From an uncultured virus (IMG/VR IMGVR_UViG_2724679134_000002) (Duplodnaviria > Heunggongvirae > Uroviricota > Caudoviricetes): a stretch of DNA of 64,000 bases. A program made the position numbers and the translations under genes. The notes under the pieces were generated by a model. The model had not been told where the DNA came from. It worked only from the letters and a program-made list of their open reading frames with translations, and ran no database searches. Positions 5,940 through 53,193 of this stretch are shown one piece after another; the first letter of the stretch is position 1; the number at the start of each line of letters is the position of its first letter. Location: IMG/VR virus record IMGVR_UViG_2724679134_000002. One strand, written 5' to 3'.

Positions 5940-6002
5940 AAGTGAAATATAAGCATATAAAATGTAAGTTTTATTCAGACTTAAATTGTAGGAGGAAATT
6001 GC

Positions 6003-6221
6003 GTGAAAATAGGGAGCATCTTAGCATCAGAAAAAAAGCCATGTGCAGTATGTAATAGAAAAACTGACTCTTATAAAATCTATGAACAATCCAAGATAGC
6101 CATAGAAATACCAGCGTGTGATACAGAAAGCAGAAATTGTTTGCAGAAAGTAGACGTGAAAGATATGGCTTCATTCGCTTTAAAAGTGATCAAAAAAGAT
6201 ATTCAGGAGGATGCGCAATGA
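6003..6221 (+). CDS. Small Cys-containing phage protein
   Basis: GGAGG RBS; CAVC...C...C. Confidence 0.6.
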   Translation: MKIGSILASEKKPCAVCNRKTDSYKIYEQSKIAIEIPACDTESRNCLQKVDVKDMASFALKVIKKDIQEDAQ

Positions 6222-6790
6222 ATCTTGAAAAAATGTTCGAAATGCAAAAGGTGCTTGATGATCGGATAATCGAAGAAAAGGGGCTGCAAGGTCAGGACTT
6301 GTTGCCAAATCTCATTCTTGCTCTACAGGTGGAACTGGCCGAGTGTGCGAATGAATGGCGCGGCTTTAAGCATTGGAGCAATAACCGGGAGCCAAGAACA
6401 AAACATCCGTTAGAAGTTTCACCTAATGGTGCTTTCAGAAAAGGCGGAAACCCACTTCTTGAGGAATACGTGGACTGCCTGCATTTTATCTTGAGCATTG
6501 GGAATCTGATTAAATATGACACTGATAACGCACTAGATTTAGAAGGGGCGATTTGCGAACCCGATATTACAACCCAATTTATAGCGGTATTCGATAGAAT
6601 AAACACTTTGTCAGATGACGCATGTGACAAGAGCGATCTTACATTTTGGCTTGCACACAATCCTTACGAAAGTTTGTTCCAATTCTTTAATGGCATAGGG
6701 AAAATGTTGGGCTTCACACCGGAACAGATCGAAGCTGCTTACATGGAGAAAAACGCCGTCAATCATCAGCGGCAGCAGGAGGGGTATTGA
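6218..6790 (+). CDS. Dimeric all-alpha dUTPase (dUTPase_2 family)
   Basis: MNLEKMFEMQKVLD, LALQVELAECANEWRGFKHWS, LEEYVDCLHFILSIG, AYMEKNAVNHQRQ; start at RBS-preceded ATG 6218. Confidence 0.9.
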   Translation: MNLEKMFEMQKVLDDRIIEEKGLQGQDLLPNLILALQVELAECANEWRGFKHWSNNREPRTKHPLEVSPNGAFRKGGNPLLEEYVDCLHFILSIGNLIKYDTDNALDLEGAICEPDITTQFIAVFDRINTLSDDACDKSDLTFWLAHNPYESLFQFFNGIGKMLGFTPEQIEAAYMEKNAVNHQRQQEGY

Positions 6791-7140
6791 TGAACCATGC
6801 AGACAACCCGATCATTTCAGCCGTTATCAGCAAACTAAACGCACAACAGGAAAAGGGGCTTGCCAAGTACGGCCAGCCCGTCCAAGTTAATGCCTATGAT
6901 CTGCGCGGTTGGTTGCAGCATGCACTTGAAGAAACTCTTGATCATGCAGTCTATCTGGAAGCGGCCATCCAAACGCTGGACGAGAATCCGATTATCAAAG
7001 GCTTCAACGAAATGGAGTCTGTTCAGGACAGAATTAGAAATCTATATCCGCAACAGCATTGTGATGGATACGATCATGCAATGTCACATTTTAAAGAGAT
7101 TCTTGTATCGGCTCAATTATTGAAGGGGGGAAAATCATGA
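6787..7140 (+). CDS. Conserved phage protein (helical, possibly NTP-pyrophosphatase-like)
   Basis: GLAKYG...WLQHALEETLDHAVYLE. Confidence 0.55.
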   Translation: MMNHADNPIISAVISKLNAQQEKGLAKYGQPVQVNAYDLRGWLQHALEETLDHAVYLEAAIQTLDENPIIKGFNEMESVQDRIRNLYPQQHCDGYDHAMSHFKEILVSAQLLKGGKS

Positions 7141-7421
7141 AATCAAAACATTTCTTTGAAATCAATGAACCGTATTTTGCTCTTATCAAAGCGGAAAACA
7201 AGGCGGAAGCCGAGAAAATCTATAACGAAACTGTCGCCGACACAGACGAATACGAAAATTTTCAAGAAGAGGAAATCAACGAGGTAAGCCGTGATTATGC
7301 TCTTATCGAATGTACGAAAGCGGGGGACGGAAAGGGAAATCTTAAATCCACGAAATTTATCATAGAAACGTTCAACAAGCCGGAAAGCGAGATCCTCATT
7401 ATGGATGGTTCCCTACTATGA
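7137..7421 (+). CDS. Hypothetical phage protein
   Basis: Coupled ORF; FFEINEPYFALIKA. Confidence 0.65.
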   Translation: MKSKHFFEINEPYFALIKAENKAEAEKIYNETVADTDEYENFQEEEINEVSRDYALIECTKAGDGKGNLKSTKFIIETFNKPESEILIMDGSLL

Positions 7422-7828
7422 ACACAGCATACAGAGTGTGGGACGGACAGCAGATGCATTATTGGGATGATGAAGGGTTGAGCCTTGAAATCAAAGGTAC
7501 TGAGTGGATTTTATGGCGTGACGGTTGCAGGGTTATTGTTGCGGCAAGTTACGAAGAAGGAACGGCTCTCATGTGGGATACAGGGTTGAAGGATAAGCAC
7601 GACGGAGAGATATACCATAAGGATATTACTGAGGAATCGTTTGTGAATCCTTTGCTCAAAGAAAATGTTATTGACCGTTATGTTATTGAGAGACGAAAAG
7701 GCATCGACAGAATGAACCACGTCAGCAAAAAGAGCCAATTGGATAGGTTCTTATGGTATCGACTTGATGAAATCAAGGTTGTCGGCAACGTTTATGAAAA
7801 TCCTGAGTTATTGGAGGGCGCGGAGTGA
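7418..7828 (+). CDS. YopX-family protein
   Basis: YRVWD, TGLKDK..EIY..DI, VVGNVYENPELL. Confidence 0.9.
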   Translation: MNTAYRVWDGQQMHYWDDEGLSLEIKGTEWILWRDGCRVIVAASYEEGTALMWDTGLKDKHDGEIYHKDITEESFVNPLLKENVIDRYVIERRKGIDRMNHVSKKSQLDRFLWYRLDEIKVVGNVYENPELLEGAE

Positions 7829-8037
7829 TGGCATATGATAAAGAAGTGATTGAGATCAGATACAAAACAGTTGTGATTTGCGATAAATGCAGAAAAGAGA
7901 AGGTTTTGGGTATAGGAAAACCTTTAACATGGGAAGACCACATGAATGGCGCTTTGCATCACGGTTACACATTCACAGAGAAAGGAAACGGATTTGAAAA
8001 TCTATGCCCTAAATGTCAGAAGGAGGGCGCGGAGTGA
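7825..8037 (+). CDS. Small Zn-finger-like phage protein
   Basis: CDKC...CPKC. Confidence 0.65.
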   Translation: MMAYDKEVIEIRYKTVVICDKCRKEKVLGIGKPLTWEDHMNGALHHGYTFTEKGNGFENLCPKCQKEGAE

Positions 8038-8213
8038 GACAGGCAACGGAAAAACAATTAAGTCTAATCAAACGAATGGAAGAACTTATAAACGTAAAAT
8101 TCACCGGACATACAATTAAAGAAGCGAGTGAATTCATCTCGGAGCATATGGATAGATATCAAGAAGTGAAAGAATTCGTGTTTGATCAAACGTATTATTA
8201 TGATGCTTATTAG
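8034..8213 (+). CDS. Small phage protein
   Basis: GTG overlapping previous stop; ATEKQL..I...ASEFI. Confidence 0.55.
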   Translation: MRQATEKQLSLIKRMEELINVKFTGHTIKEASEFISEHMDRYQEVKEFVFDQTYYYDAY

Positions 8214-8279
8214 GTGCTAACTGAAAAAGTCAATCTTAATAAAAGATGCATTTTAAAATAAATTTAAAATAAGTGGAGA

Positions 8280-9086
8280 GTGACTCGTATGGAAAAAGAC
8301 ATTAAAAGTGAGCAAATTGAAGCAACCATTAACGAAAATAATGAAATGGGAGTATTTGAACACAGAACCATCCGAGAGGAGCACATGTACCGGGATGAGA
8401 TTTTGGATCGAATAAAAGCCGTTCCTCTTCTGGGGAACTCTACGGAGATTACAGTTGAGATGGCTGCGGAGTATTATATGGTTCCGGTTGATACGATCAA
8501 GACCGTCATTAAAAGAAATAGGGATGAATTTAATGATTATGCTGAAATTAGAGTTTTAAAAGGTAAGAGTTTAAAAGAATTTTGTCAGGTTCATGATGAA
8601 CCTCGCAAAATTATAAGTTCGAAAGTCAGAAGTTTGCAAATTGTTAATCGAAGAGGATTGCTCAGATTAGGAATGTTACTTACTGAATCCAAAGTTGGAA
8701 AATCAGTTAGACACTATTTGTTGAATGTAGAGGAGGCAACTCCAAATCAAATTGCTATCTGGGCAGCAAAAAGAGAAATTGCGAGGACAGAAAGAAAACA
8801 GCTTACAGATGCAATTAAGGAGTTTTATGAAGGAAACATGAAGGACGCTCATGCATATACAAACTTTACTCAGCTTGTTTATAAAGTTTGTTTTGATAAA
8901 AACAAAAAAGAGCTAATAAATGTATATGATTTAGATGAAAAGGATTCACTTAGAGATGCAATGACAACTGAGGATCTTAGAAAAGTGGTTCAAGCTGAAA
9001 AAACAATTTCTGTTTTGGTGAAATTGGGGAAAGATTACGCAGAAATCAAAGATGAGCTGTTAAAAAATAAGCATAAGTTTCAATAA
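8280..9086 (+). CDS. Putative antirepressor-type DNA-binding protein
   Basis: TVEMAAEYY.V...IKRNRDEF..NRRGLLRLGMLLTES N-domain; RKQLTDAIK..YTNFT C-domain typical of phage antirepressors. Confidence 0.55.
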   Translation: MTRMEKDIKSEQIEATINENNEMGVFEHRTIREEHMYRDEILDRIKAVPLLGNSTEITVEMAAEYYMVPVDTIKTVIKRNRDEFNDYAEIRVLKGKSLKEFCQVHDEPRKIISSKVRSLQIVNRRGLLRLGMLLTESKVGKSVRHYLLNVEEATPNQIAIWAAKREIARTERKQLTDAIKEFYEGNMKDAHAYTNFTQLVYKVCFDKNKKELINVYDLDEKDSLRDAMTTEDLRKVVQAEKTISVLVKLGKDYAEIKDELLKNKHKFQ

Positions 9087-9119
9087 AAGTAAAATTTTAA
9101 ACAGAATAGGAGAGAAATC

Positions 9120-9494
9120 ATGAACATATCAAATTTAGAGCAAAAGCTCCTTGAAAAGAAGACTGAAAAATTTAATAAAGAGATTGATAAAGGTGTTGAG
9201 ATTATTATTAACGCTATCCAGGCTCTTTATGATCAAGACAGTCATTCAATTTCTACTGGTGGAATGGCTGGGTTCAGAGGTGACCATGCTTCTGATATTC
9301 AGCAATACTTGAACAAAAAACTTAATGTAAGTACTGTATATCGAGCTGGTGATCTAACTAAGGTAAAAAATGATTCACGAGGATATGTAACCGAGTTACC
9401 AGGCGTAATTGGAAAAGCGCTGCTCGAACAAGCTACTACTGAATTCTTTACAAAGTTACAAGAGGTTCAAAACGTTTTAGACGATATTAATTAA
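9120..9494 (+). CDS. Hypothetical protein
   Basis: GGAG RBS; bounded by junction motifs 9084 and 9492. Confidence 0.65.
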   Translation: MNISNLEQKLLEKKTEKFNKEIDKGVEIIINAIQALYDQDSHSISTGGMAGFRGDHASDIQQYLNKKLNVSTVYRAGDLTKVKNDSRGYVTELPGVIGKALLEQATTEFFTKLQEVQNVLDDIN

Positions 9495-9576
9495 AATTGA
9501 AGTTCTAATCAAATACATATGAATAATCAATCTAGAATTAAGGAAAATTAACTAAAAAAATTGTGAGGAACTTTCA

Positions 9577-10274: not shown

Positions 10275-10317
10275 ACTTATGGATCTGTATAAAAAGACTG
10301 TTTTATATAGAGAAGGG

Positions 10318-10509
10318 ATGAACTACTTAATGGATGGAAATCTTGCTATGGCTGATCACATAGTGTGGGAAACTGAGCTAGAAAATAACATTGGAATGGA
10401 TATTGTTACATATATGGAGCAGCATGGTGTCTCTAAGGCCGAAGCCGAAAAGGCTATTCTACCTTTGTATGAAGAAGAATTAAAAGCGTTGGAAAATAAA
10501 TCACAATAA
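10318..10509 (+). CDS. Small acidic protein
   Basis: Between junction motifs 10290 and 10507; start 10318 or 10330. Confidence 0.55.
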   Translation: MNYLMDGNLAMADHIVWETELENNIGMDIVTYMEQHGVSKAEAEKAILPLYEEELKALENKSQ

Positions 10510-10641
10510 AAGGATTATTTTATCTAGAGAGGACTGGACAAAATAATCAATAATAATACTCTATCGTAAGTTCATATTTTATATTACTTCGAAGAAAAAC
10601 ATTGAATTTAAAAAGGGAGCTAGAAGCCCCCAATTGCGATC

Positions 10642-11731: not shown

Positions 11732-11852
11732 GACATCACCTGCTTTGTATAAGTATGATCTGGTGTCAGCTTACCAATTAAAGGGGATTTTCTCAAGATG
11801 ATACACATTAAAGTTAAATTAAAATCGTGATTTTAAAGGAAGAGGTGAAGTA

Positions 11853-12290: not shown

Positions 12291-12330
12291 ATAAAAGATA
12301 GTTTTTAATCAGTTATTAGGAGGAAACGAA

Positions 12331-13227: not shown

Positions 13228-13455
13228 CTTATCACCCTTTCAAAGTATATATTAAATTGTAACATGGAACGGGTTAATCAATATAAGGCATTGATTATAG
13301 AAAATAGCAACGGATTATTACTTAGGAAAGAAAAAATGATTTTTTCAATAAACATAAAATAGTTATTTTAACAATAAATTACCTAATTGATCAATGTACT
13401 AAATTTTCATTTGGTGTGTAATAGCGAGTCACTAAGGAATTATGTAACGGAGAGA

Positions 13456-15082: not shown

Positions 15083-15304
15083 ATGCAGCAGCAAACAGTT
15101 GAGGTTAAGGAAGTTGAAGTGTTAATCAAAGGAATATGGAAAAAGAAAAAGTTCACTGACATTCAAAAGGGGCAAACCTTTAAGATTGAGGAGAATGAGA
15201 GAGTAAAGAAGTACATAGCAAGAACAAATCCTTATTGGGATGACATGTATGAGACTTACATAATTGATTTGTTGGATAAAAATAAAATTAGAAGATCTAG
15301 ATAA
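15083..15304 (+). CDS. yoqX: YoqX-like small protein
   Basis: GGAGG RBS; synteny. Confidence 0.6.
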
Positions 15305-15353
15305 AACAGAGATTTTATAAAGCTAAAAATAAATTGAAAATGAGGTAAGGAAA

Positions 15354-15500: not shown

Positions 15501-15901
15501 TGAGAATGGACATTATCAAGATTCGTTACACATTCAGGCATAAAGGCAGCGGCAACATTGAAATGAAATGGTACAGCATCGGGCAATTGGAAGAAAAGGC
15601 CGCAGCCAAGTTGTCTCCGGTATTCTCAGATGAATATGAATTAATCAGCCGGGATTTATACACCGGATTTAAGGACAAGAACGGCCGGGAGATTTATGAG
15701 GGGGACATTGTGAAAGTCACTAACGGCGCGGAAGAGTTAGGCAAAGTTGATACCGGTATAGGAAAAGTTGAATGGCTTACTAAATGGGGATTTTGGAACG
15801 TTTCAAAAATAGAAAATGGTCTGGGCGATTTGCTTTTTAACGGTTATGTGGAAGTCATCGGCAACATTTATGAAGATCCTGAGCTTTTGGAGTATAAATA
15901 A
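15500..15901 (+). CDS. YopX-family protein
   Basis: YTGFKDKNGREIYEGDIV, EVIGNIYEDPELL. Confidence 0.9.
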   Translation: MRMDIIKIRYTFRHKGSGNIEMKWYSIGQLEEKAAAKLSPVFSDEYELISRDLYTGFKDKNGREIYEGDIVKVTNGAEELGKVDTGIGKVEWLTKWGFWNVSKIENGLGDLLFNGYVEVIGNIYEDPELLEYK

Positions 15902-15934
15902 AAACGATATTTTAAACAGATAAGGAGTGTTCAA

Positions 15935-16496: not shown

Positions 16497-17093
16497 ATGG
16501 ACTACATAGAAAAAGCGAAAAAAGAAATTAAAGATAATTGGTTTAAAAATCATGTTGCTGAAATCAGAGGCAATGAGGGGCTGCAGGTTATCTATTGGGA
16601 AAAGCCTGGGACATTTGAGTACCGAACAACGTTTGTATTGTCTGACAATAACATATTTATTTCTGGAGATATAGGTGAAGCAGTTTATAACCTAACATGT
16701 AGTGCCACATTAAAAAACATAAAAGAATTTGATCTTCGCTATTTAACTAGAAAACTGACAGCTCATTCAGATGAAAGATGGAGTTTTAACTACAAGAAGG
16801 CACTCAGGGAATTAGACGAATGGTATTTAGAGAGGAAAGATGACCAATTAGACGATTTGGATGAATTGCATGGAGATTTAAGGGAAGCAGCAATGAATTT
16901 TTCATTACATGAGCATTTTAAAACTGCAGTCTTTTCTATTTATGAGACCACTACAGCGCATTGGTTTGACACAGAAGAAGCAGAAAGTGTTTCTGATTTT
17001 GGCAGTGAGTTACCGCATCAATTTATTGCATACTGGGTTGGATTACAAATGGCAATTAAGCAGCTAGAAAAAACAAATACGAATTCTGCATAA
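16497..17093 (+). CDS. Conserved phage hypothetical protein
   Basis: AAGGAG RBS; IFISGDIGEAVY. Confidence 0.7.
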   Translation: MDYIEKAKKEIKDNWFKNHVAEIRGNEGLQVIYWEKPGTFEYRTTFVLSDNNIFISGDIGEAVYNLTCSATLKNIKEFDLRYLTRKLTAHSDERWSFNYKKALRELDEWYLERKDDQLDDLDELHGDLREAAMNFSLHEHFKTAVFSIYETTTAHWFDTEEAESVSDFGSELPHQFIAYWVGLQMAIKQLEKTNTNSA

Positions 17094-17188
17094 AAGTAAT
17101 TTTTTATTCAAAGGGGGTGTTCTTAATGTAATTCATATCGTTGCTTAAAAGTGAAATATAAGAAAGTATATAAGAAAGTGGGCGTTTT

Positions 17189-21356: not shown

Positions 21357-21458
21357 CAAAGAGTCCCTTATAAGGGGCTTTTCTTTTTAAATAAAATTAT
21401 CATTTTATAGAGAAATTTCTTAACAATAAAAAATAAGGAAATTTATTTTAAAAAACAG

Positions 21459-29432: not shown

Positions 29433-31730
29433 ATGATTATTCAACCTAAATTAGAAACGGATGTAACGAAAAAGTATGAAAAACATTGGGTTGAAGATTT
29501 TAATGAGATAAAAACATTGTTTTATCAAGATAAACCAAAACTGTGTGTATTGGATTCTGAGACAACTGGATTACACATAATTAAAGATAAGCCTTTTATG
29601 TGGGTTTTCAGTTGGCTCCTTCCAAGAGAAAAACGAACAGAGAATTTAAAAGGAAGAAGCTTTGCATTTGAGTCAAACAAGGATATTTTAATAAAAGTAA
29701 TTGAACTTACTAAACTTTGTGTAATGACGGTTGGCCATAATGTTAAATATGATTTACATATGCTGATAAACGGAGGAGTCCAAGATGAATTAGTTTTCGG
29801 ACTAAGTAACATAACTGATACTATGGGCTTGTGCAGACTGACTTTTGATGCTGTATCTGCCAGAGATGGTGGAGACATGCTTGGGTTAAAAAAAGTATCA
29901 GAAAAGTACATAGACCCTAGAGCAGCAGAATTTGAAAAAGAAGTTAAGAAAGAGCTTAGACGTATCAATGATCAAAAAAGAAATCTTTTAAAAGAGTTAC
30001 TGAAGCCCTACAAGGAAATTGGTTGGGGCATAGGTAAAATTAAAGATGCCTACAAGGTTAAAAAACGAAATGATATGGATCAGTTTACTAGAGAAAGAAA
30101 GCAAAGATGGATTGAAGTTCCAAAGGAAATCGAAGAACTATATTTTCAGTGGATGGAAGACAACCCTTTTGCAAATTATTCAGAAGTAGACAGAAATATT
30201 ATGATGGAGTATGTACACAGCGATGGGATTTATACTCTTGAGTTAGTTGAATATACTTACCCTACAATCTTAAAACGAAATCAAAAAGCTATTCTTGAAC
30301 ATGAAAATTCATTAATTATGGAGTTACTTCGTATGGAAAGGGTAGGTATGAAAGTAGACATGCCTTACTTAGAAAGTTGCTACAAAAAATGTGAAGATGA
30401 AATCCAACGACATTATGAAGAACTTTGGAATATAGTTGGAGAAAACTTTACTGCTTCTCAAGGTACGGTTATTCAGGATTATTTCGAAAAGAAGCTAGGT
30501 AATAGACCGGGAGCAACAGACAAAACATTCTTGAAGAAACATAAAGATGATCGACTGTCGCAGCTTATTACTCGATTAAGAAGACTTGAAAAATGGCAAT
30601 CTACATATATTTCTAGAATTATTGAGGTTGCACAATATGATGAACATTTCTATACACAGTATGGACAATTTAACACTGTTTCAGGAAGATTAGGATCAGA
30701 TGCGCAGCAATTCCCAAAAGAGAGGATTTTAACTGAAGAAGGTGAGAAGTACGAAAAAGAAAATGGAGAAGGAAAAGCTTCTTCAGAATATGAGATTTTT
30801 TCACCAAGAAAAGCATTTATAGTAGAAGGTGGAGATTACTCAAAGATTGCATACTTTGACTTATCACAAATTGAATTAAGAGCTCAAGCGAATTACACTG
30901 TTCTTCTTAATCGGCCTGATTTAAACCTTTGTAGAGCCTACATGCCGTTTAAATGTGTGCATTATAAAACCAATGAAGTTTTTAAATTTGATACGAAAAA
31001 AGAAAGAGAACGTTGGTCAGAAAAAAAGGATGATGGTAGCTCAGTTTGGTTACTTGAAGATGGGAACAGTTGGACTCCAACTGATGTACATAGTGAAACA
31101 TCTCATAACACACTTATGGCATTAGCTTTTAAATGTGTAGAAAAGTATAAACAGTATGAACATGATAAAGACTCTCCTGTTGATGAGAAATCATTTAAAA
31201 AGTTTTGGCGTTATATTGGAAAGATGTTTAATTTCATGCGAAATTATGGAGGTGGGGCAGCAAAAGCATCTGAGGCTTTAGAAGTTTCGATGGAGATAGC
31301 GAATGCCCTTGTAACTGGTTGGTCAAGTACCTTCCCAGAAGTCTCTTATTATCAAAAACAGGTTGCAAGTAAAGTGCAAAAGAGTAACCATGCAGTAAAT
31401 ATGTATGGAAGAGTGTACTACTTAACAAATACTGATAAAGCGTATAAGGTAGGCAATTATCTTGTACAAGGATCTTGTGCGGATATGCTTAAAGGTTATG
31501 TAGTTAAAATTGGGCAGTTTTTAAGAGAAAACAAATGTAAATCCCTACCTTTGGCAAATATTCATGATGAGCTTCAATTTTTGATTTACAAAGGAGAAGA
31601 ATGGATTTTTCCGCATATAAAACGAATCATGGAAGATGTAGATTGGATGCAAGTTCCTGTAGTAGTTGACTTAGAAATCACTGAAACTACATGGGCTGAT
31701 AAAAAAGAAGTTGAAATTAAAGCATCGTAA
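29433..31730 (+). CDS. Family A DNA polymerase with 3'-5' exonuclease
   Basis: LDSETTGL, GHNVKYD, TVSGRL, DLSQIELR, R..GK...F...YG, NYLVQGS.AD, IHDE. Confidence 0.92.
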   Translation: MIIQPKLETDVTKKYEKHWVEDFNEIKTLFYQDKPKLCVLDSETTGLHIIKDKPFMWVFSWLLPREKRTENLKGRSFAFESNKDILIKVIELTKLCVMTVGHNVKYDLHMLINGGVQDELVFGLSNITDTMGLCRLTFDAVSARDGGDMLGLKKVSEKYIDPRAAEFEKEVKKELRRINDQKRNLLKELLKPYKEIGWGIGKIKDAYKVKKRNDMDQFTRERKQRWIEVPKEIEELYFQWMEDNPFANYSEVDRNIMMEYVHSDGIYTLELVEYTYPTILKRNQKAILEHENSLIMELLRMERVGMKVDMPYLESCYKKCEDEIQRHYEELWNIVGENFTASQGTVIQDYFEKKLGNRPGATDKTFLKKHKDDRLSQLITRLRRLEKWQSTYISRIIEVAQYDEHFYTQYGQFNTVSGRLGSDAQQFPKERILTEEGEKYEKENGEGKASSEYEIFSPRKAFIVEGGDYSKIAYFDLSQIELRAQANYTVLLNRPDLNLCRAYMPFKCVHYKTNEVFKFDTKKERERWSEKKDDGSSVWLLEDGNSWTPTDVHSETSHNTLMALAFKCVEKYKQYEHDKDSPVDEKSFKKFWRYIGKMFNFMRNYGGGAAKASEALEVSMEIANALVTGWSSTFPEVSYYQKQVASKVQKSNHAVNMYGRVYYLTNTDKAYKVGNYLVQGSCADMLKGYVVKIGQFLRENKCKSLPLANIHDELQFLIYKGEEWIFPHIKRIMEDVDWMQVPVVVDLEITETTWADKKEVEIKAS

Positions 31731-31949: not shown

Positions 31950-32621
31950 ACAATTATAGCCAGCATTATTGTTTTAACAGGTGGTGTTGTATTCAACATT
32001 AAAAATATCGTAAAAGATGATGAAGAAGACATTCAAGTTTCAATAAAAGAGTCATTTTATAAGAACAAAAAAGAGACTATTGAAAGGATTACACATAAAA
32101 AAGAGAGGAATTTCACGCTTCCGAAATTAAAAAGTAAATTGGATAAGCAGAAAGAAAGCCAAAAGAAATTCATCTATGAGAAAATTTCTTACCCAAAGAA
32201 AGAACAATTTACGAAAACACAAACTAATCCAACTTCAAAAGTGAAAAATAATCATTTTAACAAAACAAGAGTAACGAAACGTGAAGAAGAGCAAAGTAAC
32301 AATCATTCTATTAATGTTGTGGCAACTGCGTACACTGCTTTTTGTTCAACAGGCTGCATCGGTAAAACTAAGACAGGCTACGATGTTTCAAATACATCGT
32401 ATTACAGAGGAAAACGAATTATTGCTGTAGATCCCAGCCTTATTCCTTTAAATTCTTTGGTTGAAGTCAGTTATAAAGGAGGGAGCTTTCAAGCATACGC
32501 AATTGACACTGGAGGGGATATCAAAAGTAACCGAATAGATATTCTAATGAACACAAAAAGTGAAGCAAAAACATTTGGAAGACAGCAAGCAAGTGTGAAA
32601 GTGCTGGAAAACGATTGGTAA
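31950..32621 (+). CDS. yorM: YorM-like membrane-anchored 3D-domain protein; 5' end lost in N-gap
   Basis: ATAYT, IAVDP..IPL, AIDTGGDIK..RIDI. Confidence 0.8.
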   Translation, partial: TIIASIIVLTGGVVFNIKNIVKDDEEDIQVSIKESFYKNKKETIERITHKKERNFTLPKLKSKLDKQKESQKKFIYEKISYPKKEQFTKTQTNPTSKVKNNHFNKTRVTKREEEQSNNHSINVVATAYTAFCSTGCIGKTKTGYDVSNTSYYRGKRIIAVDPSLIPLNSLVEVSYKGGSFQAYAIDTGGDIKSNRIDILMNTKSEAKTFGRQQASVKVLENDW

Positions 32622-33875: not shown

Positions 33876-33932
33876 AGACTAGGTAAAATAATCGTTTTAA
33901 AGAAAGGAGTGAAAAATCACCCCTTCATATGA

Positions 33933-34277: not shown

Positions 34278-34553
34278 AAGATATACCTCCTAGGTTTTGA
34301 TTGTGATTACAAGTCTAGTCTAGCATGTTAAATATTTGAAATGTGTGAAGTGTTTGTGAAACTGATTAAAATATCTCTTTTAAAGAAAAGGAGGGTTTAA
34401 TTGAACAGTTTTTTAAAAAGGTTATCTGTAGCATGTAAGTCTACAATTCATCACAAAGCTTATCAAAGAATGAATGAAGCAAATAAAGAAATTAATAAGG
34501 TGCTAAATAAATTTAAATAAAAGATCAATTTTATTTAAAGATGGGAGTGGCTT

Positions 34554-34763
34554 ATGGAAAGTACAGTGTTTATAAATCCAGTTTCGTCTTATGCTTACAA
34601 AAGAAAGAATGAGTTAGGAATTGTCATTGGTTTTGTTGGATATAAGCCTAAAAACCATGAATCTAGACTGTGTTATAAGGTTCGTTATGAAAGTGATGGT
34701 ATGGTTGACTACGTTCCTGTTTCAGACGTGGAGCAAGGGCATTATAGATTGATTTCTGTATAA
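34554..34763 (+). CDS. Small phage protein
   Basis: GGGAG RBS; between motifs 34518 and 34761. Confidence 0.65.
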   Translation: MESTVFINPVSSYAYKRKNELGIVIGFVGYKPKNHESRLCYKVRYESDGMVDYVPVSDVEQGHYRLISV

Positions 34764-34795
34764 AATTTGTCTTTTATACAAATATAAAATAAGAG

Positions 34796-35008: not shown

Positions 35009-35011
35009 ACA

Positions 35012-36959: not shown

Positions 36960-37407
36960 CAGCAACCGTATTGTTTTGTAGGGGAGGAAACTCTCCTACT
37001 CTTAAAAATAAGTTAAAAAAACAATAGACAAAAATAAAAAATAAGTATATAATTAATGTACATTACAGGCAAAGGAGAGTGTTAATGAACATATATGTGA
37101 CATCTGTAAAGAGTACATAAGCGGAAAAGCAATTTGTCTTAGAATCAGAGATGAAAAAACTTATGAAGACTCGAGAGAGTGAAAAATGAGTGTAGGAATT
37201 TAAGAGTTAAGAAGACTTTAAATTATTTAGGACTTTAACACAAAAATAAAAATAGAGTATAAAATATTCCTTTTATCTAGAAAGGAGGTAGAAAATTAAA
37301 CATATATATATAAACCTCAACAAAACGAAACGCCATAAAGGTTTCTTATGGCGTCTAACAGAACATGGAGGTACTCTTAACACGGCAGCGGAGGCAAAAA
37401 AGAGTTC

Positions 37408-37500: not shown

Positions 37501-37982
37501 ATTAGCCACCTCCTTTTTAAGAGGATAGTACATGATATGCCGATGGAACAATTTCGATAGGGTTGCTAGTTTAATTGATTTAAAAATGATTGCTTAGTCT
37601 AAGTAAAATCTGCATTTAAAGAGTTAGAGGGAAATTATAATCAACGGAAATTTTCATGATTTCCCGGGCAAGCGCAGTATACGACAATTTAAAACAAATA
37701 ATGGGGAGAGATAAAAGAATAAATATGAGTGTCAAAAAAAGGGAGCAAAATTAAAGTCATTAAGGAAGTTAGAGGTCATTGGGGACACATTATTTATCTG
37801 ATTGGAAGCGAATGGTTAGTTAAAGAGGTAATTGCTCAAGAAACTGGAACTGTGTTCTGTAGAGATAATGATTATGGGATACCACAGACACATTATGAAG
37901 TAATCTAAATAAATTTCAATTTTATATAGAAATTAAAATAATTAGGTCTATAATCAACCTACAATATATGGAATTCGCCTAT

Positions 37983-38385: not shown

Positions 38386-38508
38386 TTAAATGGGGGGAGA
38401 TACTCCCTCCCAATCAGATTAAGGAAGCATGAAATGAACAATCTAAGCTTAACAGGAGTCTATATAAAAGTTTTATTTTAAACCAATTTTGCCAAAGGAG
38501 AGTTAGAT

Positions 38509-38862
38509 ATGATCTTAAAAGAAATTGCGGTTTATGAAGAAAAATTCAATAATTATTTACCGAAGGAAACGAGAATGGTGCTTCATTACAAGAACATTGA
38601 AGCTGTTGAGAATGAGGACAAGATTACAATAAACACTGGTAAGAATTCAACGGCGTATAAGGTGTTTGATTTAGACGGGATACAAAAAGACCCACTAAAA
38701 ATGAAATTGACAAGTTATGAGGGAGAAACAATAGTGGTCGGTGTGACCATTAACAAAATTCATTTCAACTTAGCTGGAGACTTGGCAGTTAAATTAGAAT
38801 TCAAAGTGCTCAAACCAGTAGCTAGCGGTGTCGGCGAACCAGGAATTTATTCATTACTTTAA
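38509..38862 (+). CDS. Hypothetical protein
   Basis: AAGGAG RBS; between motifs 38465 and 38860. Confidence 0.65.
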   Translation: MILKEIAVYEEKFNNYLPKETRMVLHYKNIEAVENEDKITINTGKNSTAYKVFDLDGIQKDPLKMKLTSYEGETIVVGVTINKIHFNLAGDLAVKLEFKVLKPVASGVGEPGIYSLL

Positions 38863-38903
38863 AAGGATGATTTTAAAGGATTGAAGATGGCTTATGCCAT
38901 CTC

Positions 38904-39372: not shown

Positions 39373-39540
39373 GGAAATCACCACCTGTCGAGGGAAAGTA
39401 TGTTCTATTTAACTAAATATAGTATACATGATTCGACAGAAAACACAAGATATTGATAAAAAGTTACTAATCTTTGTGAAAAAATCAGATATTCCGTTAA
39501 GTTTAATTAAAATCACAGTTTCATAGGGAGGGAATTTGAA

Positions 39541-44177: not shown

Positions 44178-44419
44178 TGAGACTGATCAAATTAGAGCAG
44201 CCAAATTGCAATCCGTGTAAAATGGTGTCCAATTATTTAAATCAAGCAAATATTGAATATGAAACAATCGATGTAACACAGCAACCTGAAGTAGCAGCAA
44301 GATTTGAAGTTATGGGAGTGCCAGTAACTATTTTGCTTAATGACCAAGGTGAGGAAGTAAAACGTAGTATTGGTTTTAAACCTGAAGAACTTGAACAGTT
44401 GTTAAAGGAATTACAATAG
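44177..44419 (+). CDS. yosR: Thioredoxin/NrdH-like redoxin
   Basis: CNPC; GVPV. Confidence 0.9.
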   Translation: MRLIKLEQPNCNPCKMVSNYLNQANIEYETIDVTQQPEVAARFEVMGVPVTILLNDQGEEVKRSIGFKPEELEQLLKELQ

Positions 44420-44461
44420 AAGGGTAATTTTAAACAAATATAAAATAAAGGGAGATAATGA

Positions 44462-45665: not shown

Positions 45666-45783
45666 AAAATCACTCCTACCACTGATGTTATTATTACTCT
45701 ATCACATTCAGGAAGGTGTTTGTATTTAACGTAATTCAAATAAAAGAAGACTTTTAACGAGATTTAAAAGGAGGAGATAGACC

Positions 45784-47964: not shown

Positions 47965-48023
47965 TGCTGCCTCTAATTGTTTGCTCTAATAAATCATTGG
48001 CCATTGGCCATCAGATTATATAA
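47964..48023 (+). pseudogene. N-terminal remnant of dihydrofolate reductase
   Basis: MLPLIVCSNKSLAIGHQ resembles a DHFR N-terminus; coupled to thyA stop. Confidence 0.55.
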
Positions 48024-48203
48024 CATACGAAAAATTTAAATCTCTTATAGACAAATATAAAAAATAAGTATAATATATGAGTAGGGTATTAACCTAATCT
48101 TTTTAATTTTAAATGAGAAACAAATCGACAAAAATAAAAAATAAGAATAACTAAAAGTTTGGTTAAAACTAATATTTTATTCAAACTTTAAGGAGGTGAT
48201 TCA

Positions 48204-48557: not shown

Positions 48558-48569
48558 GGAGGTTACGTA

Positions 48570-49480: not shown

Positions 49481-49721
49481 CGAAAGAGGTGGAAGGTGAG
49501 TGACGTATTATAGATGCTTAAAGACAAAGGTGTTTAAAAAATATAGCGGATATGATTGGACTTGCGAGGGAATGTTTGGAAAACCAAGAGTGAGAGGCAG
49601 CGATAAAAGAAAGCGATCGAAACATGAACGAACAATCCGAAAAGTGATGGATAAAAAAGAAATTAGTTATTGCATTTAAATTAATATAAAATCTGTATTT
49701 TATGAAGAGGAGTCGCGAGCT

Positions 49722-50006: not shown

Positions 50007-50113
50007 ATTGATGATCGAGTTGGCTATATGAGAGTTTCTGAGGTGAATACAATGCCACTAGTTCTTTACGGATTTGGAAGAGGAGCATAAAAAAGGGGGT
50101 TACTCCCCATTGG

Positions 50114-50347
50114 TCAAGGTTTAGTTTTGCCTGATTTGCTGAATTTATCAAGATTGATAATTGGTACGTTTGTGCCAATAACCTTGCTGAATACAAGATA
50201 AATAAAAAAACCAAAAAACGCTCCTGGAGTTCTTCCAAACATAAGAATACTTAAAGATACTAAAATAATAGCCATCATTGCATCAACAAGCAAACTTATC
50301 ATACGATGCATTTTAAAATACTCTCTTATATTTTTTAACTTGTTCAT
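50114..50347 (-). CDS. Small membrane protein
   Basis: GAGGTG RBS before MNKLKN; two hydrophobic segments. Confidence 0.55.
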   Translation of the reverse strand: MNKLKNIREYFKMHRMISLLVDAMMAIILVSLSILMFGRTPGAFFGFFIYLVFSKVIGTNVPIINLDKFSKSGKTKP

Positions 50348-50453
50348 TATGCACCTCTGGATGAAATTTATATAGAAAATCATACCATTGAAATATTAGG
50401 CGGTGCAATAAAGTTATAAGAAAAAAGGAGTAACGTTAGTCACTCCTTATAAA

Positions 50454-50672
50454 TTAATGAAATTGACCATTCATACTTTGTTGAGCTAGGCGAACTAAGC
50501 GTTTGGTTATTTCTCCACCAACTGAGCCGTTTGCACGGGAAGTAGTCTCGGCACCTAATTGAACACCAAACTCTTGAGCTATTTCGAATTTCATTTGTTC
50601 GATAGCTGAAGCTGCTTGCGGTACAACTAACTCATTATTATTGTTTGATTTTGATCTGTTTTGTTGAGGCAT
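50454..50672 (-). CDS. sspC: Alpha/beta-type small acid-soluble spore protein
   Basis: [26 protein letters not shown]. Confidence 0.95.
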
Positions 50673-50716
50673 GTGATCATCTCCTAAATTAATATGTAAA
50701 CAAGCTTGTTCGATCA

Positions 50717-50745
50717 TATTATGGAGAGTTTTTCTGAGATTATGC
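50717..50745 (-). promoter_or_regulatory. Sigma-G promoter of sspC
   Basis: GCATA-17-CATAATA on the minus strand. Confidence 0.65.
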
Positions 50746-50823
50746 ATTTGATTTCAAATGAATATTGCTCGAGGATGAGTAATTGATTTCTTTAATACTA
50801 ATGTTTAATGGAAGGAGGACAAT

Positions 50824-51651
50824 ATGAAAATTGATTACGTTTCTGATCTCCATATTAACCATTGGATACCTTGGAACAACAACCAAATCAAATGGGAAAA
50901 TCGGACAAGGGAGATTGTCAGAAGGTTAATCTCAAATGGAAGTGGCGAGGTATTAATCATTGCCGGAGATTTCACTGAGTGGAATCAACAAACGTTATGG
51001 GTTCTCGAAGAAGTAGCAAAGCAATACGAGAAGGTTTACTTTACATATGGAAATCATGATCTTTACTTACTCAGTAAAAACCAAAATAGAAAATACTCAG
51101 ACTCATTAGGTAGGTTGAATGATTTAATTAAGAAGGCTGCCGACATCAAGAATGTAACTCCACTGATTAAATCAACGGATACATACAAAGGGAAAGTCTT
51201 CGCAGGAGATGTTATGTGGTATCTACCAAAAGGAAATGAAGGATGGGATTTTTTCAAAGGAGTGTCTAATGATTCAAACTATATCAGTCTTAATGGATAC
51301 AGCAAAGAAGATGGGGTAAGGGCGATGTGGAAAGAATCAATGGACTGGTATGACACTCTTGAAAACTCTCACATCGATGTATTTGTTTCACATGTCCCAC
51401 CTCTTCATAACCCATATTCACCATTTGAGCCCAACAGCTGCTATATGGTCGAATTGCCATTCATTAATGCCGAACATTGGATTTGTGGACACGATCATTT
51501 ACAAACTGAGTTTTATAAAGAAGGAACGAGCTTTCACATGAACTGCATTGGGTATCCGTATGACTATGATATGTACCCAAGAGTAAATGAAATACCAGGT
51601 AATCAAGTTGACACGTATAAAACGTTTGAATTGAAGACGTTTGAAATTTAA
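50824..51651 (+). CDS. yotB: Metallophosphoesterase
   Basis: SDLH, AGD, GNHD, SH.PP, GHDH. Confidence 0.9.
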
Positions 51652-51720
51652 TTAGTAAAGGAGGATACATCTTGTTGCATTCATTTTCGTTTAATTTTTA
51701 ATAAGAAGCTCCCTTTAAAA

Positions 51721-52002
51721 ATGATGATCAAACATTGTGAAAATGACTTCAAAATACAATTGGGTAAACCAGTAAGGCATTGGTCGTCTGGAGTTCAGGA
51801 AGAAATCGGCTTATTTTTAACCTTAAGTACAAGTCAAATCGAATTTCGTTTTTTAAATAACAATAAATTCGGGGGAGCTCTCAGAAGGGTTGAACATTTC
51901 ATAGGGAAGCAATTTAAAGGTGAAACTGTTGGAATTATTCATCATAATAACGTGGCAAGATTAAAGGAAATTCCTAAAGTGAAAATTATTAATCTGAATT
52001 AG
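51721..52002 (+). CDS. Hypothetical protein
   Basis: ORF; start uncertain. Confidence 0.4.
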   Translation: MMIKHCENDFKIQLGKPVRHWSSGVQEEIGLFLTLSTSQIEFRFLNNNKFGGALRRVEHFIGKQFKGETVGIIHHNNVARLKEIPKVKIINLN

Positions 52003-52029
52003 ATCAATAACTAAGTAAGAGGTGATTAA

Positions 52030-52260
52030 ATGGATTTTTCAAGTGTTAAAGAGGGTGACGAAATAAAATACATTGGTGAGTCTTGGGCTTACGGAGGAAC
52101 TTATACAACTGTTTCAGCAGAATCTACATACAGTAACGAAGATAACTGCCCAAAACACGAAAGAGGGCGATTGGTGATTATTGAGTTTATGAATGACGGT
52201 ACGCCAATGTTCTTCACATTAGATCAGCTTAATCCTGAAGAGTGGGAATTAGTTGATTAA
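52030..52260 (+). CDS. Small acidic protein
   Basis: GAGGTG RBS. Confidence 0.6.
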   Translation: MDFSSVKEGDEIKYIGESWAYGGTYTTVSAESTYSNEDNCPKHERGRLVIIEFMNDGTPMFFTLDQLNPEEWELVD

Positions 52261-52302
52261 TAGGTTTTTAGGTAAAATTCTAATTTTATTCAGAAAGGGG
52301 AA

Positions 52303-52554
52303 ATGATAATGGATTACACAAAACGGTTAGAAGAAAAGTACCCCAATAGAATTATTCAGTATGTAAGACAGAGGGAAGGTTTAGATGAGAAAGACACCTC
52401 CGTGGATAAAGAAATTTTAGAAATGACGAACTCAGAAGTTTTTAGAGAGGTTCTAGCGTGGAATGGTTTTCTTGGAGGATGGGATCGTACAATTAAAGAT
52501 TGGATTAAGAGCATTTATGGAATCAATCTTGATGACTTGAAAAGTGAAAATTGA
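52303..52554 (+). CDS. Small phage protein
   Basis: AAGGGG RBS; between motifs 52273 and 52556. Confidence 0.65.
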   Translation: MIMDYTKRLEEKYPNRIIQYVRQREGLDEKDTSVDKEILEMTNSEVFREVLAWNGFLGGWDRTIKDWIKSIYGINLDDLKSEN

Positions 52555-52758
52555 ATAAAATGTTGATTTCATTTAGAAAGGTGGAAACAGATTGATTGTT
52601 ACAGCATGGATTTTGTTAGTTGCATTTGGGCTTGTGTTGTTAGCAAATATTGATTCCCAAGGGGATATTAAATTTGCAGTGTATATTGGTGCATTAAAAT
52701 TTGTTTCAGTATTTATTGTTGCTATTGCAGCGGGGGTGATCTGGGGAGGGTTGTTTCA

Positions 52759-53121
52759 ATGATTGAAATTTTTAAAGATACAGAAGCTATCCATGATTTA
52801 GTTTACCATTCTAAGATTAACACGTTTGTTTGGGACGTAGAATTTGACATTGTTTTATCCGAAAGTAAGGAATTGAATAGATGTTATTTTGTGAAATACT
52901 TTAATCCGTATGGAAAAAATGGAAAGTGTGATTATACGGTTAGCTCAATAGATATATTTTCAGAAGGTAAACGACTCTTAAGCAAAAATGTATTCAATTT
53001 TAAAATTAAAAAGGCAATTCACGTTGCAACATCAAAAGACGTAACTAAAATAGTTTCACATTTAAGTAAAAGCATCAATAATCCATTTCCAATTGTAAAA
53101 GAAGTTGTTTATCTAGATTAA
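52759..53121 (+). CDS. SPbeta yot-type hypothetical protein
   Basis: GGAGG RBS. Confidence 0.6.
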
Positions 53122-53193
53122 TGCAAATAGGAACTGGATAAAATCGGTCTTTTATTTAGAGTGAAAATAAAATTAGTGGATTAGTGAAGTGCT

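Follow-up and report, generated by a model that had tools for sequence, protein, structure and literature searches.

The accessory genes of an SPbeta-like Bacillus prophage, contained in a stretch of 64,000 nucleotides that we call the window, are punctuated by a strict 16-base palindrome, TAAAA-N6-TTTTA, whose six central bases we call the spacer. What do these palindromes do? The initial annotation had proposed integron- or pdif-like gene cassettes, with a regulator binding site or an mRNA hairpin as alternatives. Our comparison of related genomes suggests another answer: the palindromes have the look of ready-made joints at which SPbeta-like phages shuffle their accessory genes. The initial annotation cited no earlier description of the motif, and our literature search likewise found no paper describing it. 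We rejected its identification with SPBRE, the operator of MrpR/SroF, which is a different, non-palindromic box. In published work, MrpR/YopR/SroF binds a non-palindromic box distinct from the palindrome, and MrpR ChAP-seq yields ten peaks, located at SPBRE promoters, as opposed to some 30.

Strictness and placement of the motif

A pattern scan of the window found 26 perfect copies from 5958 to 53154, where the initial annotation had counted 24. In 100 dinucleotide shuffles of the window the mean was 0.91 and the maximum 4, and none reached 26; the shuffled control suggested earlier thus bears out the array. One-mismatch copies numbered 21 against about 19 expected. Because these stay at background, all ten arm bases appear to be read, and the motif is all-or-none. 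Five of the 21, all at gene junctions, are apparently decayed copies: 9492..9507 (right arm TTCTA, spacer TTGAAG, left arm on a stop codon), 37604..37619 (right arm TTTAA, spacer TCTGCA; 37618 is the first base of a block of homology to SPBc2), 39508..39523 (right arm TTTCA, spacer TCACAG, from the one-mismatch scan), 44417..44432 (left arm TAGAA on a TAG stop, spacer GGGTAA) and 52556..52571 (right arm TTTCA, spacer TGTTGA). Perfect copies with three of these spacers occur elsewhere, TTGAAG at SPBc2 87599, GGGTAA at SPBc2 126703 and TGTTGA in Goe12 and Goe13. About seven near-perfect copies had been claimed; these five stand, but the site at 16310 is more degenerate, with a 7-bp spacer or two mismatches.

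By the calls of a crude ORF picker, 24 of the 26 perfect copies lie outside genes, with coding sequence making up 80% of the window, and the median gap from the upstream gene's stop codon to the palindrome is a few bases. The left arm overlaps the stop codon at 10 sites (eight perfect, two near-perfect), in agreement with the earlier figure of at least 10, and the ORF calls also confirm the single-gene intervals 9084-9492, 10290-10507, 34518-34761, 38465-38860 and 52273-52556. Palindromes also bracket minus-strand genes and sit between convergent genes. No perfect copy was found in 1-5957 (the sro/repressor operon) or 53155-64000 (serine recombinase and host genes), as the initial annotation had observed. 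Its third copy-free region, the replication block, does hold a single perfect copy, at 29509..29524, inside the family-A DNA polymerase ORF. This copy has a counterpart in none of seven SPbeta-like phages and is possibly a chance occurrence, about one per window being expected. All 26 perfect-copy spacers differ from one another, as stated earlier for the array. Such uniqueness within a genome is a chance outcome, since from the spacer composition we estimate that some 30 sites would show about 0.5 coincidences.

Conserved sites as swap points

The motif is specific to the SPbeta-like family. Perfect copies number 34 in SPBc2, 34 in Goe11, 36 in Goe12, 37 in Goe13, 30 in phi3T, 35 in SPR and 34 in BUCT083, and a reversed-pattern control gives 0 to 2 across these seven phages. 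SPO1, SPP1 and phi105 contain zero copies. Five proviruses with YomM 60-67% identical carry 19, 18, 10, 5 and 14 copies, versus 1 to 4 for the control.

Of the 26 window spacers, 20 recur in at least one of the seven phages, in collinear order. Those present in all seven are GATGCA (8240..8255), AGACTG (10290..10305), GATAGT (12292..12307), TTTGTC (34761..34776, left arm on a stop codon), TATTCC (37260..37275, with an A-tract box abutting on the left), GTTTTA (38465..38480), CTAATA (48164..48179, upstream of a yosX-like gene), TTCTAA (52273..52288) and TCGGTC (53139..53154). Six of seven share GTAAAA (9084..9099), GATCAA (34518..34533) and GGATGA (38860..38875), each with its left arm on a stop codon, and five share TGTAAG (5958..5973). 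Four share ACGATA (15899..15914) and GTAATT (17091..17106), both with the left arm on a stop codon, and GAGTCA (32044..32059), which adjoins masked N in the yorM-upstream region and has the allele AAGTCA in SPBc2 and phi3T. Two share TATCTC (34367..34382), TCTGTA (49687..49702) and TTATCA (21392..21407); the last lies 3' of a terminator-like T run, upstream of the replication block, and the other five phages carry its reverse complement, TGATAA, at the same place. CAGAGA (15302..15317, left arm on a stop codon) recurs in BUCT083 alone. Absent from all seven are GGATTA (10507..10522, left arm on a stop codon), TCGTGA (11820..11835), TAGTTA (13355..13370, between two minus-strand genes) and TAATCG (33884..33899, between convergent genes). 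Other phages have GAATAC at the copies syntenic with GAAGAC (45741..45756), a single change.

Sharing extends to a B. pumilus L052 prophage with a YopP of only 44% identity. Four of its eight spacers match a 65-spacer panel (expected 0.13, P about 1e-5), and TGTAAG, AGACTG, GATAGT and TTCTAA from the window occur there. Spacers do mutate (TTGGAA/TAGGAA, AAGTCA/GAGTCA, GAAGAC/GAATAC); at sites matched by flank homology their conservation is only slightly above that of the flanks (0.991 versus 0.961, and 0.940 versus 0.906).

The copies mark exact swap points of unrelated genes in related phages, and flank reassortment does not reach beyond the site's 16-20 bp. At GATGCA, TTCTAA, GTTTTA, TATTCC and CTAATA a single 16-mer joins differing combinations of left and right flanks, and flanks are likewise reassorted at GGATGA. 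TTCTAA and CTAATA each show the full set of four combinations; at the latter, repressor-box type and downstream gene are combined in all four ways. Across 80 IMG/VR loci and 8 genomes, the AGACTG site shows many flank combinations, with one right-flank class joined to 9 left-flank classes and four-combination cycles. We also collected short matches, defined as syntenic, unique and exact over 16-45 bp with both flanks unlike, from 28 genome pairs. A perfect palindrome is present in 172 of the 277, representing 23 spacers, and identity at these matches extends mostly just 0-2 bp beyond the 16-mer.

In informative genome comparisons, which are phylogenetically non-independent, window junctions with a copy were broken in 93 of 105 cases versus 179 of 305 (59%) for junctions without one. 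Gene-content breaks in SPbeta-like genomes, the comparison proposed by the initial annotation, thus fall on palindromes far above chance. Contigs of four related strains start or stop matching at 34382, 34537, 34755/34760, 37260, 38853, 45738/45743 and 48189. Matches to X2 and X8 stop at 34382, the last base of the TATCTC palindrome; pieces of X1 and X13 end at 34537, beside 34518..34533; others begin at 34755 and 34760, beside 34761..34776; an X2 piece begins at 37260, the start of the TATTCC palindrome; and joints at 45738 and 45743 fall at GAAGAC. Homology to phi3T ends at 49702, with the TCTGTA copy. Overall, a copy is found within 20 bp of only 24 of the 118 distinct homology boundaries in 4400-54000. 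Together with the 59% breakage at palindrome-free junctions, this proportion indicates that the sites are frequent joints, not sole ones.

A crossover joint or a docking site

The shape of the site bears on what might recognize it. TAAAA-N6-TTTTA is the invariant core of a 28-bp dyad with an 11-6-11 layout, TYTnnA-TAAAA-N6-TTTTA-TnnARA, in which TYT at -6 to -4 mirrors ARA at +19 to +21 (60 sites). The AGA after the right arm had been taken as ribosome-binding-site context; it is present, but because TYT 5' of the left arm mirrors it, it is part of the longer dyad and not such context alone. Positions -5 and +20 combine as C-A 13, C-G 13, T-A 13 and T-G 11 times. Symmetric outer positions without covariation suggest a site read as double-stranded DNA by a symmetric protein, not a hairpin.

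We consider it about 45% probable that the palindromes are in-register crossover joints bound by an SPbeta-specific symmetric protein, probably through tyrosine-recombinase-type exchange; here we infer protein binding, the identity of the binder and an enzymatic, as opposed to microhomology-driven, crossover. Paired subunits would bind each copy symmetrically as double-stranded DNA. Every copy has an individual 6-bp centre, and the order of centres is kept among related phages. When related genomes meet by co-infection or infection of a lysogen, equivalent copies would serve as crossover points at which adjoining DNA is exchanged in register, even without flank homology, and two crossovers would swap the genes between two sites. 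The likeliest chemistry would be tyrosine-recombinase-type strand exchange across the 6-bp centre, and for this the two centres would have to match.

Conserved residues make YopP/SroD or YomM the possible recombinase. The YopP/SroD-like protein (738..1820, plus strand) has a tyrosine-recombinase fold with Pfam Phage_integrase and SAM-like domains, and is reportedly an auxiliary repressor, which counts against a role as recombinase. Its family keeps R177, K205, H267, H294 and Y303, and with SPBc2 YomM it retains Arg-I, the beta-hairpin Lys, His-II, His-III and the catalytic Tyr. An alternative candidate binder is the YopQ/SroE-like protein of the DndB family (1912..3303, plus strand; Pfam DndB, E = 1.5e-13), next to the master repressor MrpR/YopR/SroF (3324..4301, plus strand; Pfam MrpR_C_cat, E = 1.3e-115). 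A section of one report calls the role of SroE unclear (10.1101/2025.11.27.690993).

A regulator or architectural binding site is a live rival, and a quite possible one. The palindrome would then be the docking site of a dimeric phage protein with another main job, and gene exchange would be a by-product. The protein might be a lysogeny regulator or roadblock, such as the DndB-like SroE/YopQ or a small helix-turn-helix protein, or else an architectural one of the HU/IHF kind, YonN for example. No conserved island between the variable genes is longer than the 16-20 identical bases, and recombination would therefore tend to resolve there, by homology-facilitated illegitimate recombination, single-strand annealing through the phage's Sak4-like protein or template switching at the protein-bound site. 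A strict, family-specific motif without covariation suits such a protein, and helix-turn-helix dimers of the CRP/FNR type would also match its 5-N6-5 geometry. Two Cro/C1-type helix-turn-helix proteins and the DndB-family protein are encoded beside the repressor, and a repressor box abuts the palindrome at two sites. Spacer drift and the many breaks away from palindromes also favor docking, as do four laboratory phi3Ts x SPbeta hybrids: their crossovers lie within shared stretches of 1.4-18 kb, long homology that indicates ordinary homologous recombination. A protein blind to the centre, however, gives no reason for ordered centres across phages with differing genes, B. pumilus included, and 16-20 bp of identity is short for homologous recombination. 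Moreover, copies stand at gene ends regardless of transcription direction and off promoter- and terminator-like sites: promoter-like sites are not enriched (60 versus 80 in shuffles), and 33200-53190 has 14 terminator-like sites, with no palindrome on any of them. The ten MrpR ChAP-seq peaks also count against a docking site.

Cassettes, hairpins and known systems

Integron- or pdif-like cassettes, in which a recombinase would excise a gene with its palindrome as a circle and insert it at another palindrome, are improbable. The single-gene intervals and the position of copies close behind the upstream stop codon, like attC, fit this proposal, as does the layout of the dyad. Yet among 8 genomes no case pairs site-gene-site with a single site whose outer flanks both match; two scans for cassette gain or loss gave 0 events, and 1 event that was an overlap artefact. 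The sites hold a fixed order and do not move about, and what the genomes show instead of excisable cassettes is in-register replacement between two fixed, individually recognisable sites.

Least credible is an RNA element, a hairpin that would direct the processing, stability or termination of mRNA or couple translation between cistrons: in long operons, copies do occupy the gap from a stop codon to the following ribosome-binding site, and phages such as T7 and SP82 carry intercistronic RNase III sites, but the outer positions lack base-pair covariation, the stem would be five A-U pairs (32-nt folds at copies average -2.6 kcal/mol, z = -1), the five one-mismatch junction copies are unbiased toward G-U-compatible changes (three of the five are T-to-C in the right arm), copies flank minus-strand genes and sit between convergent genes, and the terminator scan matches no copy. 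Of the two alternatives in the initial annotation, the hairpin is therefore disfavored and the regulator site still live.

Known recombination systems offer likenesses and differences. The attC sites are folded imperfect repeats, whereas the window palindromes are short perfect dyads, a further point against cassettes. Inverted arms around a 6-bp spacer had been likened to a tyrosine-recombinase core, and the resemblance holds: with the outer arms the palindrome dyad has an 11-6-11 layout, which is also that of Xer sites. A point against the candidate enzymes is that they depart from Xer and other canonical recombinases at one position, where these have the second Arg and both YopP (K270) and YomM have Lys, giving HxxK, not HxxR.

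A strict palindrome between genes of SPbeta-like phages

The palindrome TAAAA-N6-TTTTA occurs in 26 perfect copies in the window, whereas 100 dinucleotide shuffles contain 0.91 on average and never more than 4, and the enrichment over shuffled sequence that a genuine array would require was thus borne out. The details in the initial annotation were essentially right, except that it had counted 24 perfect copies. Ten copies do begin on the upstream stop codon, as it had described. The site that it listed at 16310 is a degenerate copy, and the replication block, in which it had seen none, contains a perfect copy at 29509, inside the polymerase open reading frame (ORF). With genes called by a crude ORF picker, coding sequence makes up 80% of the window, yet 24 of the 26 perfect copies fall outside the calls. 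The motif is all-or-none: 21 copies with one mismatch were counted where about 19 are expected, and 153 with two where 176 are expected. Five one-mismatch copies lie at junctions (9492, 37604, 39508, 44417, and 52556), three of which have perfect counterparts with the same spacer, the central N6, in other phages.

The other background controls were the reversed pattern and three unrelated B. subtilis phages. Perfect copies number 34 in SPBc2, 34 in Goe11, 36 in Goe12, 37 in Goe13, 30 in phi3T, 35 in SPR, and 34 in BUCT083; the reversed, non-complemented control pattern occurs zero to two times in each of these seven phages. Five proviruses with a version of the tyrosine-recombinase-like protein YomM that is 60-67% identical contain 19, 18, 10, 5, and 14 copies (control, 1-4), and a B. 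pumilus prophage fragment with a 44% identical YopP has 8 copies in 21 kb. No copy was found in SPO1 (132 kb), SPP1, or phi105. The element is real, strict, and family-specific; it belongs to the SPbeta family and is a feature neither of the host nor of AT-rich DNA in general. Its absence from SPO1, SPP1, and phi105 speaks for a factor of the phage family. We found no description of the motif in the literature searched.

A megablast search with positions 30000-40000 of the window matched only SPbeta-like Bacillus phages (25 records), with Goe11 and Goe14 as the best matches (59% covered, 83% identity), and the YopP cluster closest to that of the window (97% identity) is named Bacillus atrophaeus. 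Pfam matches outlined a sro/repressor operon at 527-4301, which encodes a Cro/C1-type HTH protein, a YopP-like protein of tyrosine-recombinase fold, DndB-like YopQ, and MrpR; a replication block with a family-A polymerase at 21520-31730, followed by nucleotide-metabolism genes; and a large serine recombinase at 55001-56698 with Resolvase, Recombinase, and Zn-ribbon domains. The host genes beyond it, also from Pfam, comprise an AAA-lid fragment, an hflX-type GTPase, a methionine gamma-lyase, a MerR/GlnR-type regulator, and glutamine synthetase. The AAA-lid fragment lies directly behind the serine recombinase at the prophage end (55001-57089), which may represent an insertion into a spoVK-like gene; an insertion of this kind is reported for phage Goe14. 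The family-A DNA polymerase is encoded at 29433-31730 and is likewise present in Goe11 and Goe12, whereas SPBc2 has the larger YorL instead, making the replication module one of the swapped blocks.

Several other features of the window were recorded. Two adjoining ORFs at 12331-12863 match positions 3-91 (N-terminal) and 86-129 (C-terminal) of the trimeric dUTPase profile and look like a split or frameshifted dUTPase; a dimeric-type dUTPase (6218-6790) and an intact trimeric one (44897-45325) are also encoded. In the nrdE-like gene (40408-42507), contigs of two related strains have 288 additional letters at 41551-41560, an insertion polymorphism. This ribonucleotide reductase large subunit is unbroken in the window, whereas its SPBc2 counterpart contains both an intron and an intein according to the annotation. 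Runs of N (bases masked or unknown) occupy 31816-31949, in the yorM-upstream region beside the palindrome at 32044, and 43435-43444, in an nrdF-like gene. The accessory genes at 10642-10923 (minus strand) and 17279-17548 (plus strand), both within palindrome-bounded stretches, match the LCI fold, an antimicrobial-peptide family, and the RnlB antitoxin family, respectively.

Ordered centres and reassorted flanks

Comparison of the window with the seven phages gave good support for the conclusion that the palindromes are ordered, individually recognizable junction sites whose flanks have been reassorted within 16-20 bp. Twenty of the 26 window spacers are present in at least one of the seven phages, ten of them in all seven, and the positions of shared spacers are collinear in every genome compared. 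Four of the eight spacers of the B. pumilus prophage match the 65-spacer panel (0.13 expected); its DNA homology is otherwise confined to patches (70-87%). For sites matched by homology of both flanks, conservation was 0.991 in the spacer versus 0.961 in the flanks; for those matched by one flank, it was 0.940 versus 0.906. Several single-base spacer alleles exist. As spacer conservation exceeds that of the flanks only modestly, we do not claim strong purifying selection on the centres; what we claim is that a site outlives its flanks. No spacer is duplicated inside any of the eight genomes, and as chance predicts less than one duplicate per genome, this uniqueness is not evidence. The site at 21392-21407 has the centre TTATCA in the window, phi3T, and BUCT083; its syntenic counterpart in SPBc2, Goe11, Goe12, Goe13, and SPR has TGATAA, the exact reverse complement, a difference due either to a flip of the centre or to two point changes.

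When one and the same 16-mer was compared in the eight genomes, left and right flanks were found in differing combinations. The sites with centres TTCTAA (52273) and CTAATA (48164) show all four pairings of two left and two right types. The left types at CTAATA carry either an SPbeta-type or a phi3T-type repressor box, which means that an immunity-specific operator and the gene downstream of it have been reassorted against each other precisely at the palindrome. At AGACTG (10290), a single right-flank class occurs with nine left-flank classes among 80 IMG/VR loci and the eight genomes, forming several four-combination cycles; many of the singletons are probably chance hits.

To generalize from single sites, we collected from the 28 genome pairs every exact match of 16-45 bp that was unique and syntenic and had unlike 30-bp flanks on both sides. 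The uniqueness and synteny filters were needed because unfiltered matches were dominated by repressor boxes and chance 16-mers. A perfect palindrome was contained in 172 of 277 such isolated matches (62%), with 23 spacers represented, and truncated or one-mismatch copies account for several of the other 51 sequences. Identity mostly extends just 0-2 bp past the 16-mer.

Gene-content breakpoints in related phages were also found at the motif, as the initial annotation had anticipated. Window junctions with a copy were broken in 93 of 105 informative genome comparisons, versus 179 of 305 for the others (120 of 200 for those of at least 15 bp), and SPBc2 junctions in 122 of 175 with a copy versus 357 of 836 without, the compared genomes being related rather than independent samples. 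Most of the 118 distinct BLAST homology boundaries lie elsewhere, and the 24 that fall within 20 bp of a copy make up a share about six times the 3.5% of the sequence that those intervals cover. Match edges listed for contigs of four related strains, from four studies, are at 34382, 34537, 34755/34760, 37260, 38853, 45738/45743, and 48189; in one related-strain contig, the TTCTAA palindrome stands directly behind position 51644, among the matches listed. The sequencing runs were compared as contigs, none with more than one-third of the sampled words. In four laboratory phi3Ts x SPbeta hybrids, the crossovers lie within shared stretches of 1.4-18 kb. They are ordinary homologous recombination and, because the shared stretches are long, uninformative about the sites. 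Shared blocks of the parents start or stop at palindromes (Hyb2 104632, 106012, and 119045).

We favor the reading that the palindromes are in-register crossover sites worked by a recombinase-type protein, with a probability of roughly 0.45. Both the enzymatic nature of the exchange and the identity of the enzyme are inferences. Alternatively, the palindrome might be a docking site with another primary role, exchange being a by-product, which we regard as a serious though less favored possibility. Identical 16-mers between reassorted flanks, with identity ending 0-2 bp beyond them, fit an exchange inside the site between partners with the same centre, but microhomology-based joining would look alike. 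The initial annotation had instead proposed exchangeable integron- or pdif-like cassettes bounded by the sites. Integron arrays comprise an IntI integrase, attI, the promoter Pc, and attC imperfect repeats folded as single strands. Integron-like cassettes now appear very improbable, because among the eight genomes no clean pair of site-gene-site and single-site states with the same outer flanks was found, the events seen are replacements between fixed sites rather than insertion and excision, the Pfam hits of the window include no integron-type organization, and the sites are short perfect dyads without covariation rather than folded imperfect repeats of the attC type.

The dyad and its candidate proteins

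When the 26 window sites and 34 SPBc2 sites were aligned in the direction of their genes, the 60 sequences gave the layout T(45) Y(52) T(36) n n A(47) TAAAA, N6, TTTTA W n n A(48) R(57) A(55). The symmetry continues outward: T, Y, and T at -6 to -4 are mirrored by A, R, and A at +19 to +21, and A at -1 is mirrored by T/A at +16. Within the spacer, K is preferred at the first base and M at the last. The full element is a 28-bp dyad, 11-6-11, with the two-arm layout of a recombinase core site. Its symmetric outer positions do not covary: at six flank pairs, Watson-Crick combinations are as frequent as expected from shuffling, and at -5/+20 the four combinations are equally frequent. The RNA fold is weak (mean, -2.6 kcal/mol per 32 nt; z = -1), copies are found also beside minus-strand genes and between convergent genes, and in 33200-53190 neither the 14 terminator-like sites nor the best promoter-like sites coincide with a copy. 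This combination points to a double-stranded site, each half of which is read independently by a symmetric protein, rather than a hairpin. With no compensatory pairing and so weak a fold, a structured RNA element, whether a processing site or a terminator, is very improbable.

The palindrome is also distinct from the known repeated element of these phages. SPBRE, the SPbeta repeated element, is described as the operator of the integrase-fold repressor MrpR (YopR, SroF), with about ten promoter sites reported (Kohm et al. 2023, PMC10516654). The 15-mer common to the upstream regions of ten ChAP-seq target genes in SPBc2, AAAAAATATGTATAT / ACAAATAATATGTAT, is another, non-palindromic sequence, which rules out identity of the motif with SPBRE. 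For phi3T, the SroF box is described as a 26-bp non-palindrome bound by a monomer, and SroE as a second repressor (10.1101/2025.11.27.690993). Like the palindrome, SPBRE is a repeated intergenic element of the same phages, and it abuts the palindrome at two sites; it differs in sequence and lacks the palindromic form, its SPbeta version being ACAAAWAATATGTATAT-like and its phi3T version a 26-bp A-tract box. Immediately to the left of the TATTCC (37260) and CTAATA palindromes are A-tract boxes similar to the SroF/MrpR box, at 37235-37259 and 48120-48160 in the window and at 107932 and 121065 in phi3T. The left arm is abutted by the published phi3T box in phi3T and BUCT083 and by an SPBRE-type box in SPBc2. 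The two features annotated as "palindrome" in the SPBc2 record are other sequences.

The YopP-like protein (SroD) encoded at 738-1820 is one of 12 family members, with identities as low as 28%, among which R177, K205, H267, H294, and Y303 are invariant. Aligned to XerA/XerD, these residues correspond to Arg-I, the hairpin Lys, His-II, His-III, and the catalytic Tyr, and the second-Arg position is occupied by Lys (K270), leaving five of the six canonical residues. YomM of SPBc2 shares the HxxK pattern and weakly resembles Cre. A PDB sequence search with the single YopP-like protein returned nothing, even at E = 10, whereas a profile of the 12 sequences reached XerA and XerD. YopP and YomM are only candidates for the recombinase of the sites; DndB-like YopQ/SroE, HTH proteins, and HU-like YonN are other possible binders. 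Three loci with YopP relatives among genome contigs have 8, 2, and 0 copies in 21, 21, and 5.6 kb. Of seven loci encoding a 60-67% identical YomM, four lack a copy within 10 kb, and the whole records of five of the seven contain 5-19. All these carriers are SPbeta-like, so that the presence of YopP or YomM alongside the motif does not identify either as the enzyme. Another palindrome, AGTGT-N4-ACACT, recurs near the recombinase gene in distant YomM-bearing proviruses, within longer inverted repeats (locus L249, 14130 and 14551; locus L250, 13152 and 14999).

A more specific form of the crossover reading, which we advance tentatively, is that SPbeta-like phages possess a dedicated, address-coded site-specific recombination system worked by YopP/SroD or YomM. 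Each genome would carry about 30 core sites with identical arms and individual 6-bp centres, and the phage enzyme, of tyrosine-recombinase type, would perform crossovers between equivalent sites whenever two genomes reside in one cell, so that genes could be swapped in register without need of flanking homology. As the centres differ between sites, only like sites would pair, and deletions inside one genome would be forbidden. Such a system, if true, would give viruses an inbuilt means of shuffling genes with one another. If the sites are enzyme-worked, they would be heterospecific recombination sites put to a new use in nature and would offer a ready-made toolkit for multi-site cassette exchange in Bacillus. 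If they are merely protein-docking islands, they would point to an unrecognized DNA-binding factor with about 30 sites per genome in SPbeta, the regulation of which is under active study.

Comparison with known systems

Tyrosine-recombinase core sites, such as those of loxP/Cre, FRT/Flp, and dif/XerCD, consist of inverted arms of about 11-13 bp around a centre of 6-8 bp, at the edges of which the recombinase cleaves, and heterospecific lox and FRT variants serve cassette exchange. The palindromes resemble lox, FRT, and dif sites in having inverted arms and a 6-bp centre (11-6-11). Flank reassortment confined to the site is compatible with exchange that needs no flanking homology, as in core-site systems, and the phage encodes proteins of tyrosine-recombinase fold. 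What sets the palindromes apart from lox, FRT, and dif is their number, about 30 natural sites in a genome, the individual centre of each, and their apparent use between genomes rather than within one; and unlike canonical tyrosine recombinases, the candidate enzymes have Lys at the second-Arg position.

The PeSLs (promoter-early stem-loops) of T4-type phages are described as promoter-plus-terminator cassettes that recombine through homology and yield mini-circles (Arbiol et al. 2010, PMC2839356). As presented there, they share with our sites the character of short conserved intergenic elements among small non-essential genes in plastic regions of a large phage, at which insertions, deletions, and replacements between relatives end. 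Unlike PeSLs, the palindromes are neither promoter-like nor terminator-like, only 16-28 bp are conserved, each copy has its own centre, and the eight genomes show no signature of indels or circles. A regulatory cassette of the PeSL type was rejected, as no terminator-like or best promoter-like site in 33200-53190 lies on a copy and the folds are weak. The pdif sites of dif modules in Acinetobacter plasmids are described as resembling the host dif and are thought to use XerC/XerD, with modules moving between plasmids (Mindlin et al. 2019, PMC6449649). In that account, as here, accessory genes in the variable part of a mobile replicon are bordered by numerous sites of recombinase type; unlike pdif, the palindrome is confined to one phage family and occupies fixed, ordered positions.

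The origin of phage mosaicism is an old open question, in which exchange guided at linkers is set against random illegitimate joining followed by selection. Lambdoid linker sequences are few and debated. Such linker or boundary sequences were reportedly proposed for lambdoid phages in the modular theory, a proposal associated with Susskind and Botstein in 1978 and with Clark et al. in 2001. One strict palindrome family marks many joints in SPbeta of B. subtilis 168, a classic tractable model phage, which makes the question directly testable. As in the lambdoid proposal, short conserved sequences between modules would guide exchange among related phages. Unlike the lambdoid linkers, the palindromes form a single strict family with site-specific centres, which is present at about 30 junctions and makes up 62% of the isolated identity islands.
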